DNA of 24,000 bases from an uncultured Anaerolineae bacterium (GTDB taxonomy: Bacteria; Chloroflexota; Anaerolineae; SSC4; Amarolineaceae), in the NCBI GenBank assembly GCA_964443225.1, contig CAYUCC010000019.1:1451-25450 (forward strand). Reading direction: 5' to 3'. Of this stretch, positions 1,141 to 19,671 are shown one piece after another. Both the position numbers and the translations under genes were made by a program. The notes under the pieces were generated by a model, which worked only from the letters and a program-made list of their open reading frames with translations, had not been told where the DNA came from and made no database searches. Numbering within the stretch: position 1 is the first letter of the stretch; each line of letters starts with the position of its first letter.

Positions 1141-2418
1141 TCAGTCTAAATCGGTGTCCTGCGCGTCGACCGCCAGGGACACCTCGTATTTCATGAACTC
1201 GCGCAGCACGTTTGTCGCATAAGCACCCTTCGGCAGCTGAAATTGCAGCCACAGCCCCGTCTGCTGCTCCGCATCTTCGACCACTGCACCCTCACCCTGC
1301 GGAGTCCGCACCCCCAGGTGCAAACCCGCTTCCTCCTCCGGCGGAGTCCGCACCCCCAGGTGCGGACCAGCCTCTACCCCCTCACCCTGCGGAGTCCGCA
1401 CCCCCAGGTGCGGACCAGCCTCCTCGCCCTCACCCTGCGGAGTCCGCACCCCCAGGTGCGGACCCGCGCTGCTGATGCTCAACCCCTCGATCAACAGCCG
1501 CCCCAGGCGCCGGCTGCCCTCCACGCGGGCCTTTTTGAACGTCCCCGCCGGCAGGGCCACCTCCGCCAGCACGCGCGACTCCAACTCCCCCGCCGTGCCG
1601 CCAGCCGCCATCATCTTGCTGCCAAACATCGGCCCGGTGTGGCTGATCTCGCGCACCTCGAACCGCGGCTGTTCGCGCACCGGGTCTTCGACGATGAACA
1701 ACCCGCCGGTCGCATGTTTTTTCGCCACATCCCCTTGCACCAGGGTGAAAAACAGCTCCGCCTCCCAACGGCGCACCAGGTACAGGTTGAACAACGCCGC
1801 CTGAAAGGCTGACACCACCAGGTCACGCAGCCAACGCTGGCGTGGCCCGCGTCCCAGCAGCGCCTGGTAACCCTGGACCGCATTGTCACCGCGGCGCCCG
1901 AAACGCTGTGGCCCGTAGAAGTTGGGCAGGCCACGATCGAGCAAACGATCAGCAATCGCCGTCGCGCGGGCCGCAGCCTCGGGTACCACATCGGCCACGA
2001 AGATGGTGAAACGGTTGCCCAGCAGGTGTCCGGTGCGCAGCTTGTTGTGGTGGGGGCGTACCCAGTTCACCTGGAACGGCAGTTGGTCGCTGATGCGCGC
2101 GGCCGCCGTCTGCGGATCGATGCCGGGCACGGAAAAGGTCTGCGTGGCCAGGGCCTGGCGGTCTTTGAGGCCGGCATAACCGATGTCACGCACCGGCACG
2201 TCGAAACACTGCCCCAGTTTGATGGCGACGTCACGTGTCGTCCAGCCGGCGCGCGTCAGGTTGATGTAGACGTGAGGGCCGCTGCCTTCGGCCGCGTACA
2301 GAGGGACTTCTTCGACGATGAAGTGTTCAGGGATTTGTTTGATGCTGCCGCCGATACCGGGGAGCTCACCGGTCACGAACGGCAGCGTAAGACCTTGCAG
2401 CACCTGTTCGATGGTCAT
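1141..2418 (-). CDS. truD: tRNA pseudouridine(13) synthase TruD, carrying an in-frame repeat insertion near the C-terminus
   Basis: Contains GYAGLKDRQA (the catalytic-Asp GxKD motif), NFYGPQRFG, and the C-terminal strand LPKGAYATNVLREFMK. Start ATG at 2418 gives MTIEQVLQGLTLPFVTGELPGIGG and overlaps the upstream gene stop by 4 nt (ATGA). The track ORF to 2757 is over-extended. Confidence 0.9.
   Translation of the reverse strand: MTIEQVLQGLTLPFVTGELPGIGGSIKQIPEHFIVEEVPLYAAEGSGPHVYINLTRAGWTTRDVAIKLGQCFDVPVRDIGYAGLKDRQALATQTFSVPGIDPQTAAARISDQLPFQVNWVRPHHNKLRTGHLLGNRFTIFVADVVPEAAARATAIADRLLDRGLPNFYGPQRFGRRGDNAVQGYQALLGRGPRQRWLRDLVVSAFQAALFNLYLVRRWEAELFFTLVQGDVAKKHATGGLFIVEDPVREQPRFEVREISHTGPMFGSKMMAAGGTAGELESRVLAEVALPAGTFKKARVEGSRRLGRLLIEGLSISSAGPHLGVRTPQGEGEEAGPHLGVRTPQGEGVEAGPHLGVRTPPEEEAGLHLGVRTPQGEGAVVEDAEQQTGLWLQFQLPKGAYATNVLREFMKYEVSLAVDAQDTDLD
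1291..1465. repeat. intragenic tandem repeat: four units of 42, 48, 48 and about 28 nt, each containing the hairpin GTCCGCAC-CCCCAG-GTGCGGAC
   Basis: Unit is gcggagtccgcacccccaggtgcggaccagcctc...ctcaccct. Units start at 1299, 1341, 1389 and 1437. Units 2 and 3 are identical at 44 of 48 positions. All periods are multiples of 3. The array is translated within TruD as GPHLGVRTPQGEG(E/V)EA repeats. Confidence 0.95.
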
Positions 2419-8760: not shown

Positions 8761-8843
8761 AAGGGCTTGTAAAAGAATATCTTCCTGCAAAATGGCCGGA
8801 ATTCGCCGCAAAGCACGGTAAGTTATTCTTTTGCAAGCCCTAA
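8761..8843. repeat. 83-bp hairpin-forming repeat element, copy A (MITE-like or structured RNA)
   Basis: aagggcttgtaaaagaatatcttcc...ggtaagttattcttttgcaagccct forms an imperfect stem of about 24 bp around a loop of about 31 nt. 70 of 83 positions match copy B (17516-17598) in the same orientation. It directly abuts the sigma-factor stop codon (8844-8846). Confidence 0.85.
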
Positions 8844-10971: not shown

Positions 10972-10982
10972 AGCGCCCCTCC

Positions 10983-11017
10983 CTACTCCCTACTCCGTAC
11001 TCCCTACTCCCCACTCC
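10983..11017. repeat. five tandem heptamers CTACTCC (minus strand: GGAGTAG/GGAGTAC/GGAGTGG) in the hydrolase leader
   Basis: ctactcc ctactcc gtactcc ctactcc ccactcc, read directly from the sequence. On the minus strand the G-runs also satisfy a G-quadruplex pattern together with the adjacent GGGAGGGG. Confidence 0.9.
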
Positions 11018-17515: not shown

Positions 17516-17598
17516 AAGGGCTGGTAAAGGAATAACTTCCAGCAAAATGGCTGGAATTCGTCACAAATCATGGGAAGTTATTCTTTTATCAGCCCTAA
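17516..17598. repeat. 83-bp hairpin-forming repeat element, copy B
   Basis: 84% identical to copy A (8761-8843). The stem AGGGCTGGTAAAGGAATAACTTCC / GGAAGTTATTCTTTTATCAGCCCT is about 24 bp. It overlaps murC codons for LRADKRITSHDL and the TGA stop (17561-17563). Confidence 0.85.
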
Positions 17599-19076: not shown

Positions 19077-19114
19077 CACCCCAACCCCCAACCCCCAACC
19101 CCTGATCCCAACCC
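19077..19114 (-). repeat. G-rich TTGGGG-like tandem tract (G-quadruplex motif) in the intergenic leader before murC
   Basis: Minus strand: GGGTTGGGATCAGGGGTTGGGGGTTGGGGGTTGGGG. It has six G-runs of at least 3 G separated by 2-4 nt. It lies between the upstream stop (19115-19117) and the murC ATG (19042). Confidence 0.85.
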
Positions 19115-19639
19115 TCACCGCCGCACCCGCAGGATGATCAACAAGGCCAGCCACAGGATGAGCACGGTCGAGGGCCAGGTCGGCGGCAGATACGCCTGCA
19201 CCGCCTCCGCAAAGGGGCTGAGATTGTCCGTAACAATGAAATCGAGTGGATAATCGTATTTTGCCAGGTAGTACCACAGCGTACCCGCGACCAGAATCCC
19301 GTTGACGCCGCCAAAGAACGCGTTGAGTGTGAGGCCGGAACAACCAGTGGGCGGTACGCCCGGATACTGGAGCGTAACCCCGGCGTAACCGGCTACGGTG
19401 ATCGCAATGAACAACCCCTGGAAGATCAGCATCGTCAGCAATTGGGCGGTCTGCTCCGAGGCAAATCGATCGATCAGCGAATACAGCGCGGCCTCGGCCT
19501 GACTGCCAAAGAGACTAATCAACAGCAATGCCACCAGGATCACGATCGTGGATCCCAACTCCTTGTCGTATCCACGCGCAATCCCGATGAACACAAACAT
19601 TACAACAACAGCGATCCAGAGTACCTCGATTGGTCCCAC
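19115..19639 (-). CDS. CvpA-like integral membrane protein (paralog 2)
   Basis: 174 aa with about 4 TM segments. N-terminal VVVMFVFIGIARGYDKELGSTIVILVALLL resembles the CvpA (G-x-R-R/K-G-x-x-x-E) opening. GTG start. Family call is tentative. Confidence 0.6.
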   Translation of the reverse strand: MGPIEVLWIAVVVMFVFIGIARGYDKELGSTIVILVALLLISLFGSQAEAALYSLIDRFASEQTAQLLTMLIFQGLFIAITVAGYAGVTLQYPGVPPTGCSGLTLNAFFGGVNGILVAGTLWYYLAKYDYPLDFIVTDNLSPFAEAVQAYLPPTWPSTVLILWLALLIILRVRR

Positions 19640-19643
19640 AATC

Positions 19644-19671
19644 TAAAATCCAAAATCCAAAATCCAAAATC
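19644..19671 (-). repeat. four tandem heptamers GATTTTG (x3) plus GATTTTA, filling the spacer between the two CvpA-like genes
   Basis: Plus strand reads taaaatc caaaatc caaaatc caaaatc. This is an AT-rich island in a GC-rich genome. It ends 4 nt before the GTG start at 19639. Confidence 0.9.

Follow-up and report, generated by a model that had tools for sequence, protein, structure and literature searches.

A probable REP-derived, in-frame and tandemly expanded insert in the truD gene of an uncultured Anaerolineae bacterium

Single, dimeric and clustered repetitive extragenic palindromic sequences (REPs) are also found inside genes that encode known proteins in several species (Di Nocera, De Gregorio and Rocco 2013, PMC3733652). 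The intragenic clusters of Thauera and R. conorii encode 43–82 amino acids (aa), the pseudouridine synthase genes truB and truA have been hit repeatedly, with R. conorii truB carrying the Rickettsia palindromic element (RPE) RPE-1, and in the described REP superfamilies one end of the palindrome is marked by the tetranucleotide GTAG or CGTC (PMC3733652). The same paper reports the GTAG-23 REPs of Thermomicrobium roseum (Chloroflexi) as clustered in blocks and lying within small palindromes, and summarizes RPEs, after Ogata et al. 2000, as palindromic repeats that sit in frame in housekeeping genes and are translated, located at the protein surface and compatible with the fold. Here we analysed a 24,000-nt stretch of DNA (the window) from an uncultured Anaerolineae bacterium of the phylum Chloroflexota (assembly GCA_964443225.1, contig CAYUCC010000019.1, positions 1,451–25,450), in which truD, the gene for tRNA pseudouridine(13) synthase, contains a tandem array of hairpin-forming units. 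We consider it likely that this array is a passenger insert that derives from a REP, entered the gene in frame and expanded in tandem.

Intragenic REPs and RPEs are thus already known, also from pseudouridine synthase genes, and the truD locus works like them. As with RPEs, the 201-nt insert lies in frame in a conserved gene, leaves the open reading frame (ORF) intact and is predicted to be disordered between β-strands of a confidently modelled fold; it differs in having a 22-nt GC-rich core within 42–48-nt tandem units and in its apparent membership of a family linked to REP-associated tyrosine transposases (RAYTs). RPEs are elements of the AT-rich genomes of Rickettsia, and RPE-1 spans some 100–150 nt. 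With a Chloroflexota host and a GC-rich 22-mer core, homology of the truD units to RPE-1 to RPE-10 would not be expected. The intragenic REPs of the 2013 survey are matched in that a 67-aa cluster lies within a pseudouridine synthase gene, but phylum (here Anaerolineae), REP family and host gene are all different, and the locus described here comes as a comparative series of empty, decayed and expanded alleles with substitution rates and a structure prediction. The T. roseum REPs share a Chloroflexi host, clustered blocks and a position inside small palindromes (variable complementary outer stems in the present family), but they carry the GTAG tag, have another sequence and have not been reported inside truD. 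In the literature on REPs in Chloroflexota we found only those of T. roseum and no description of a GAGGAG-tagged family. What is new here is this GAGGAG-tagged family in Anaerolineae, truD as the host gene and an informative allele series.

The hairpin array and its host gene

The host ORF encodes TruD: it matches Pfam PF01142 (E 1.2e-67) as well as NCBIfam TruD models, contains the GLKD catalytic motif and retains, in an alignment with orthologs, the invariant columns GxKD, NxxGxQRFG and LPxGxYAT (C-terminal strand). The domain, the catalytic Asp motif, the conserved C-terminal strands and matches to 1szw, 1sb7 and 1si7 together place the protein in the TruD family. Within this gene, Tandem Repeats Finder revealed an array at 1289–1464 with a period of 48, 3.8 copies and 85% matches, which repeat finding resolved into four copies with start-to-start distances of 42, 48 and 48 nt, all of them head-to-tail. 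The hairpin core of each unit, GTCCGCAC-CCCCAG-GTGCGGAC, has an 8-bp stem and a 6-nt loop; the 22-nt hairpin GTCCGCACCCCCAGGTGCGGAC is exact at 1346, 1394 and 1442 and has two mismatches at 1304. The variant core of unit 4 reads GTTTGCAC..GTGCGGAC in gene orientation, a CC>TT change.

These data bear out the original prediction of in-frame tandem palindromic repeats inside truD, with every period a multiple of three and the whole array translated, and they correct it in detail. An array does lie within the predicted span of 1291–1465, but the insert, whose boundaries we set against orthologs with an empty site, runs from 1264 to 1464 and includes a 24-nt degenerate tail. The predicted spacings of 42, 48 and 48 nt hold, but the supposed unit of about 28 nt represents only the 5′ portion of a complete 48-nt unit. 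Similarly, the hairpin is perfect in three units as had been stated, and the degenerate unit that had been called the first is so on the plus strand only; because the gene lies on the minus strand, it is the last in the protein.

On the sense strand the hairpins fold at −18.3 kcal/mol per window unit, and the array as a whole has a fold z of −4.6. Unit 4 folds at −13.4 kcal/mol in sense and −7.9 kcal/mol in antisense orientation, its CC>TT change retaining G·U pairing in the sense RNA only, a single observation. Read from the sequence, the GC-rich core is free of stop codons in all six frames, so that it can be translated without any special 'design'. Neither a further copy of the 22-nt hairpin (0 of 100 shuffles gave any match) nor a site for the looser pattern CCGCAC-N3-12-GTGCGG was found in the 24-kb window beyond the array. 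An Rfam search of the array returned no match at the gathering score; two hairpin units matched 'whalefall-1' below threshold, with 20.8 and 16.8 bits against a gathering score of 37. A CRISPR array was ruled out, given that the 20–26-nt 'spacers' are themselves repeated (85% matches over the 48-nt unit) and that the array is coding and lies inside a conserved ORF.

The insert is located between the β-strand ending in RRLGRLL and the strand GLWLQFQLPKG, where the linker comprises 15 residues in E. coli TruD (1szw) and 81 in the window protein, in agreement with the predicted location just before the last conserved strands. AlphaFold2, run with the ortholog alignment, gave a mean predicted local distance difference test score (pLDDT) of 80, with 255 residues at or above 90 and the greater part of the core above that value, and residues 323–385 had a pLDDT below 50 and no secondary structure, between the strands 311–316 and 388–395. 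The model therefore predicts a disordered surface loop within a confident TruD fold. The coordinates of the gene, the insert and its parts are compiled in Table 1.

Table 1. Host gene, insert and repeat units, in window coordinates; units are numbered in gene orientation.
Feature	Position	Strand	Length	Sequence or content	Basis or remark
truD coding sequence, tRNA pseudouridine(13) synthase	1141–2418	minus	425 aa	host of the insert	coordinates and ATG verified
Whole lineage-specific insert	1264–1464	minus	201 nt, 67 codons	residues 319–385, in frame	protein alignment and filled/empty-site DNA comparison
Unit 1	1417–1464	minus	48 nt	GPHLGVRTPQGEGEEA	perfect REP core at 1442–1463
Unit 2	1369–1416	minus	48 nt	GPHLGVRTPQGEGVEA	perfect REP core at 1394–1415
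Unit 3	1327–1368	minus	42 nt	GPHLGVRTPPEEEA	perfect REP core at 1346–1367
Unit 4	1288–1326	minus	39 nt	GLHLGVRTPQGEG	variant core at 1304–1325
Degenerate tail	1264–1287	minus	24 nt	AVVEDAEQ	

Dispersed copies and RAYT-flanking relatives

A scan for the exact 22-mer in 185,579 genomes, one per species, identified 16 loci, which fall on eight contigs of the metagenome-assembled genome (MAG) JAYRNS, five contigs of the MAG CAZXQZ, one other Chloroflexota MAG and two actinobacterial genomes. By TruD (78–89% identical), JAYRNS and CAZXQZ are the two Anaerolineae MAGs closest to the window. Judged from ORF ends and third-position GC, some copies follow a stop codon at short distance, some separate convergent genes and some precede a start codon; ten of the flanking genes were confirmed by Pfam, and no clear intragenic copy was found among these dispersed loci. 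In the closest relatives, the repeat is thus present as many dispersed, mainly extragenic copies near gene 3′ ends (13 contigs, two MAGs), in mixed orientation relative to the upstream gene. The exact 22-mer had no match in JGI metagenomes or in IMG/VR viral contigs. The two actinobacterial matches, one each in Cellulosimicrobium (L006 3867–3888) and Propioniciclava (L007 7242–7263), lie within longer terminator-like palindromes, and we judged them to be chance convergence of GC-rich hairpins.

Most extragenic copies are preceded by GAGGA, and the copy in locus L011, which has the GCGGA flank of truD, matches a truD unit at 29 of 30 nt. The family consensus is G(A/C)GGAGT followed by an 8-bp stem with a 6-nt loop. 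Tandem copies occur 41 and 101 nt apart in L005 and L016, respectively, and the JAYRNS hairpin forms the left half of an approximately 100-nt inverted doublet, the right half of which is GTGCCGCAC-GTGGGC-GTGCGGCAC-TCCTC. Inverted doublets among the extragenic relatives are composite in L002, L010, L015 and L016 and are also found in L052 and L054. The outer stems of extragenic copies vary yet stay complementary, with 15, 9 and 10 extra bp in L001 (4077–4128), L013 and L014, and one compensatory case has gaggc/gcctc in place of gagga/tcctc; judged from these sequences, this suggests either insertion into existing palindromes or outward growth of the palindrome. The hairpins account for the frequent breaks of related contigs at such sites.

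A relaxed metagenome scan with GGAGTCCGCAC-N6-GTGCGGAC identified 26 loci. Several of them, on low-GC contigs with A/T-rich flanks, were rejected because they look like unrelated terminators; with a palindromic 11-nt arm, some matches by chance are to be expected. The same scan revealed L048, which encodes a 179-aa ORF matching NCBIfam NF047646 REP_Tyr_transpos (E 5e-33; 114 bits, cutoff 80) and Pfam Y1_Tnp. This RAYT is flanked on both sides by arrays of two repeat types. Type 1, CCGCGGA-GTTCGCAT-CCCCAG-ATGCGAAC, has the tag and the loop of the truD unit and differs in the stem by two compensatory pair changes from C-G to T-A, and its 3′ flank TCCGCGGTG resembles TCCGCAGGGTG in truD; type 2 is GGAGTCCGCAC-GCCCAC-GTGCGGAC. 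Homologs of the L048 RAYT number in the hundreds at 65–90% identity, many of them named RayT by JGI, with NCBI labels that include Chloroflexi and Anaerolineales.

We examined six of these homologs, all from assemblies other than the two closest MAGs: GCA_964431175, GCA_964496165 (two), GCA_975905755, GCA_012032575 and GCA_024232355. At most of the seven further RAYT loci that they provided (L050–L057), GAGGAG-tagged hairpins flank the gene, as tandem arrays at L050, as inverted doublets at L052 and L054 and as inverted terminal copies at L056; at L055 the hairpins are related but have no clear GAGGAG tag. Flanking of a RAYT by the same repeat family was therefore found, at the family level, in L048 and similarly in L050, L052, L054, L056 and L057, with the flanking repeats being sister variants rather than the exact CCCCAG/GTCCGCAC variant and the genomes being other than the source genome. 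Because sister variants with a common tag and loop flank RAYT genes, the truD repeat is, as far as sequence relationships can tell, a member of a Chloroflexota REP/RAYT family. Two of the loci, L048 (2700–4113; Ga0209573_1000941) and L050 (3541–3818), are REPtrons in which a gene for a 179-aa RAYT directly adjoins perfect tandem arrays. Two hairpin types alternate in these arrays, and the periods are 120 and 141 nt in L048 and 88 nt in L050, where the array begins at the first base after the RAYT stop and the contig ends within it.

The family resembles REP/REPIN-RAYT systems in its short GC-rich imperfect palindrome with a conserved 5′ tag, a stem-loop in the range of about 20–40 nt, in its mostly extragenic copies at gene 3′ ends that occur as singletons, inverted doublets and clusters, and in having a single RAYT gene flanked by family variants (a REPtron), with compensatory changes distinguishing their stems. 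It differs in an apparently low copy number in the related MAGs (5 and 8 exact copies), and the truD copies differ in being intragenic, translated and head-to-tail, their RAYT link being known from other Chloroflexota contigs. A REPIN, a term credited to Bertels and Rainey (2011), reportedly consists of two inverted REPs with a short spacer between them; the truD units, by comparison, are in direct orientation and do not form an inverted doublet.

Empty, decayed and expanded alleles of the insert

Fifteen TruD orthologs from a search of 5.8 billion proteins were aligned, and DNA was retrieved for all six close truD alleles. An insert at this position was present only in the two closest orthologs, P0001 (96% identity over aligned positions; about 1.3 units, 30 aa) and P0002 (89% identity; three decayed units, 39 aa), against four units in the window. 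P0003, P0004 and P0005 (78–81%) and all more distant orthologs have the short linker ...LSINAA/QPGLWL... and no insert. The insert-bearing alleles form one clade with 89–96% nucleotide identity and the empty alleles its sister clade, about 78% identical to the window, and the DUF2085–truD–LonN synteny is identical in both. P0004, with the empty site, is encoded by JAYRNS (GCA_041912075) and P0002 by CAZXQZ (GCA_964642445). The original prediction had likened the array to RPEs, as the insertion of a palindromic repeat family, and this reading is supported by the dispersal of the 22-mer in related MAGs, the empty site of the relatives and the sister variants that flank RAYTs. It had also named a unit unique to this locus, with a linker of equal length in relatives, as the mark of simple local duplication; neither was observed, as the 78–81% orthologs have no such linker and the 22-mer is present on 13 related contigs.

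A 42-nt 'PPEE' unit type is common to the window and P0002, which indicates that two or more unit types and a degenerate end were already present in the array of their common ancestor. The short 'PPEE' unit is thus ancestral, and units have been gained, lost and converted in the array since the ancestor of the window and P0002. The 24-nt tail is also present in P0001, and its counterpart by homology in P0002 is the decayed third unit together with the tail. In P0002 the hairpins of units 1 and 2 fold at −13.1 and −7.3 kcal/mol and the third unit is unrecognisable, and in P0001 a synonymous change breaks one stem pair. The 13 extragenic cores, in contrast to the truD copies of P0002, are 100% conserved across genomes separated by a synonymous divergence (dS) of about 0.8–0.9, which implies ongoing copying, conversion or selection acting on the extragenic copies.

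Comparison of filled- and empty-site DNA revealed no clear target-site duplication at the insert. A native palindrome at the empty site was considered as a target for the hairpin and rejected: it is a perfect 8-6-8 palindrome in P0004 (CGCAGCCA-GGTTTG-TGGCTGCG), weakened in P0003 and absent in P0005, and is probably due to chance. In another TruD loop (alignment columns 231–248), native sequence is duplicated in tandem on a small scale in P0002 (L017) and P0004 (L019), LGRGPRQR becoming ...RQQLGHRPSQH in the former and MGHGPSQRLGRSPSQR in the latter; the window lacks this duplication.

Ratios of non-synonymous to synonymous substitution (dN/dS) were calculated by the Nei–Gojobori method, with the gene outside the insert taken as the core. 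The core dN/dS was 0.20 against P0001, 0.13 against P0002 and about 0.15 against the empty alleles, indicating that purifying selection on truD has been maintained since the insertion. For the insert itself, comparison of the window with P0002 gave a dN/dS of 1.29 (16 non-synonymous and 5 synonymous changes over 39 alignable codons, a small sample), a value consistent with no constraint on the peptide.

Origin of the insert and neighbouring sequences

In the origin that we favour, one REP copy would have entered truD in the common ancestor of the organisms carrying the window, P0001 and P0002 alleles, landing in the DNA for a surface linker before the last β-strands and keeping the frame. The array would then have grown head-to-tail in place, by slippage or unequal recombination, with only in-frame lengths (42 and 48 nt) surviving. 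Once transcribed and translated, it would form a disordered loop of 67 residues, rich in Gly, Pro and Glu, that TruD tolerates. Growth in place fits the strictly direct orientation and the unit-to-unit differences, and periods that are all multiples of three are expected if frameshifting variants were removed; among the family's intergenic arrays, some show periods that are not divisible by three (41, 88 and 101 nt), and those in L048 are 120 and 141 nt. We infer that RAYT or another route delivered the first copy, that slippage made the array and that the protein is active. Most likely the insert is a neutral or slightly deleterious passenger and not a functional module.

Several observations weigh against this account. 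The insertion is older than a split of dS ~0.33, and yet three units have remained perfect, which calls for recent duplication or gene conversion; because units 1 and 2 differ at only three positions, all in the spacer, the simplest explanation is that one intact unit was duplicated recently. A head-to-tail arrangement has been reported as rare for transposition-generated REP dimers (Di Nocera et al.), and the truD units lack the outer stem (gagga/tcctc) of many extragenic copies. The family tag is G(A/C)GGAGT and not the GTAG or CGTC of REP/REPIN-RAYT systems in E. coli, Pseudomonas and others; in the 5′ flank, GAGGA or GCGGA precedes GTCC, and CGTC arises only in L012 and L014, through an A>C change. 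By tblastn and pattern scans, the 24-kb window contains no RAYT gene and no other REP copy, so that we infer the presence of the family in the source genome itself from its relatives, and tblastn over all fetched loci matched L048 only, with no RAYT on the fetched contigs of the two closest MAGs. Finally, the unit resembles native truD: it is identical at 18 of 33 positions to a segment 6 nt downstream of the insert (mean 9.9, sd 2.6), a value that only 2 of 338 in-frame windows reach.

This last similarity bears on the suggestion, made in the original prediction, that the native GLWLQFQLPKG strand was duplicated locally in tandem, in which case the palindrome would be accidental and no repeat family would stand behind the array. 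The echo of that segment in the repeat peptide is statistically real, the empty-site alleles show 16–17 of 33 matches to the unit at the same place, and small tandem duplications do occur in the other TruD loop of P0002 and P0004. Duplication of native sequence nevertheless fails to explain why the 22-nt core matches 13 extragenic copies at 22/22 nt, or at best 29/30 nt when the tag is counted, although one of the genomes concerned has an empty truD site; nor does it explain the homology of the core to RAYT-flanking REPs. Counted from the aligned sequences, the similarity to the native segment also drops to 10 of 24 within the hairpin core. For the core, the exact matches to extragenic copies thus refute such an origin, the spacer motif being CCGCAGGGTGAGGG, and we regard local duplication as highly improbable. 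The similarity may instead be due to chance, to microhomology by which the insertion was guided, or to a spacer into which native sequence was copied.

Microhomology is also invoked if the REP-derived insert entered without a RAYT, by template switching of a replication fork between hairpins, or by gene conversion or illegitimate recombination with an extragenic REP cluster. The unit also resembles a native segment about 50 nt upstream of the insert. Both truD windows most similar to the unit lie within about 60 nt of the insertion site; this signal is post hoc and modest (p ~0.01). The head-to-tail units and the variable yet complementary outer palindromes of extragenic copies, which suggest fold-back or template-switch processes, would fit as well, but elsewhere the family is clearly RAYT-associated. 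The lack of a clear target-site duplication, which could be read the same way, does not discriminate between the routes, because IS200/IS605-type Y1 transposition leaves none either. We think RAYT-independent entry rather unlikely, although single-strand transposition by a RAYT and template switching or conversion from an extragenic copy are not distinguished by the data.

A functional array is a further alternative: much as the original prediction had suggested in naming ribosome pausing and RNase sites, its hairpins could act as pause, processing or stabilising elements in a DUF2085–truD–lonN-like mRNA, or the disordered G/P/E-rich loop could confer a new, copy-number-tunable property on TruD as a variable-number tandem repeat. 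The insert persists in three diverged alleles, each sense hairpin is stable (−18.3 kcal/mol; z = −4.6 for the whole array), the CC>UU change of unit 4 keeps its pairing in sense RNA only, three cores have stayed perfect although the insertion is old, and the position of extragenic family REPs at gene 3′ ends makes RNA-level roles plausible. Against a conserved role stand the decay of the P0002 hairpins (−13.1 and −7.3 kcal/mol, the third unrecognisable), the mostly non-synonymous changes in the peptide (dN/dS ~1.3), a copy number that is different in every allele, the stem pair disrupted by a synonymous change in P0001 and the lack of an Rfam match. We hold a functional array to be unlikely, and see an equally slim chance that RAYT-dependent copying or conversion from extragenic REPs has kept the array perfect in the window lineage, where it would act as a transcript structure or a copy-number-variable TruD module. 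Were the array not inert, a selfish palindromic repeat would have been recruited within coding sequence, and the unexplained association of REPs with pseudouridine synthase genes (truA, truB; PMC3733652) would extend to truD.

An assembly artefact or a truD pseudogene is very hard to credit. The 1.5-kb contig of P0001, from a k141 assembly, could hold a collapsed array, but three independent assemblies from different samples have the insert at the same codon, and the four units differ from one another (three substitutions, a 6-nt deletion and the CC>TT change), unlike the product of a de Bruijn-graph cycle. The intact ORF, the catalytic motif and the core dN/dS of 0.13–0.20 argue against a pseudogene.

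If the array is a REP-derived passenger, as we favour, the truD alleles (empty, decayed and freshly expanded) form a dated natural series for a single REP insertion in a conserved enzyme, which would illustrate how a non-coding selfish palindrome can turn into a translated disordered loop and then drift. TruD would be the third pseudouridine synthase family with REP insertions, after truA and truB, and in annotation the 67-aa repeat region should be taken neither for a domain nor for an assembly error.

Around the array, the stop codon of the upstream DUF2085 gene overlaps the truD start ATG by 4 nt, and a gene for a Lon N-terminal domain follows 3′ of truD after a gap of 11 nt. The DUF2085–truD–Lon-N gene set is an apparent operon, with carotenoid genes adjoining.

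Elsewhere in the window, at 8761–8843 and 17516–17598, we noticed another dispersed palindromic element, which is AT-rich, spans about 83 nt and is unrelated to the truD REP. The two copies are 84% identical (AAGGGCTTGTAAAAGAATAnCTTCC...GGAAGTTATTCTTTTgCAAGCCCT), both lie in short intergenic gaps, and each forms a single long hairpin, with folding energies of −41.5 and −41.8 kcal/mol (z −7.2 and −7.8) and no Rfam match. Its core is also present on two JAYRNS contigs (L002 2256–2271 and L005 2681–2696), once about 70 nt from a REP doublet. In addition, the window contains the heptanucleotide microsatellites CTCCCTA ×5.6 (10979–11017), CCCCAAC ×3.4 (19079–19102) and CCAAAAT ×5.1 (19636–19671).

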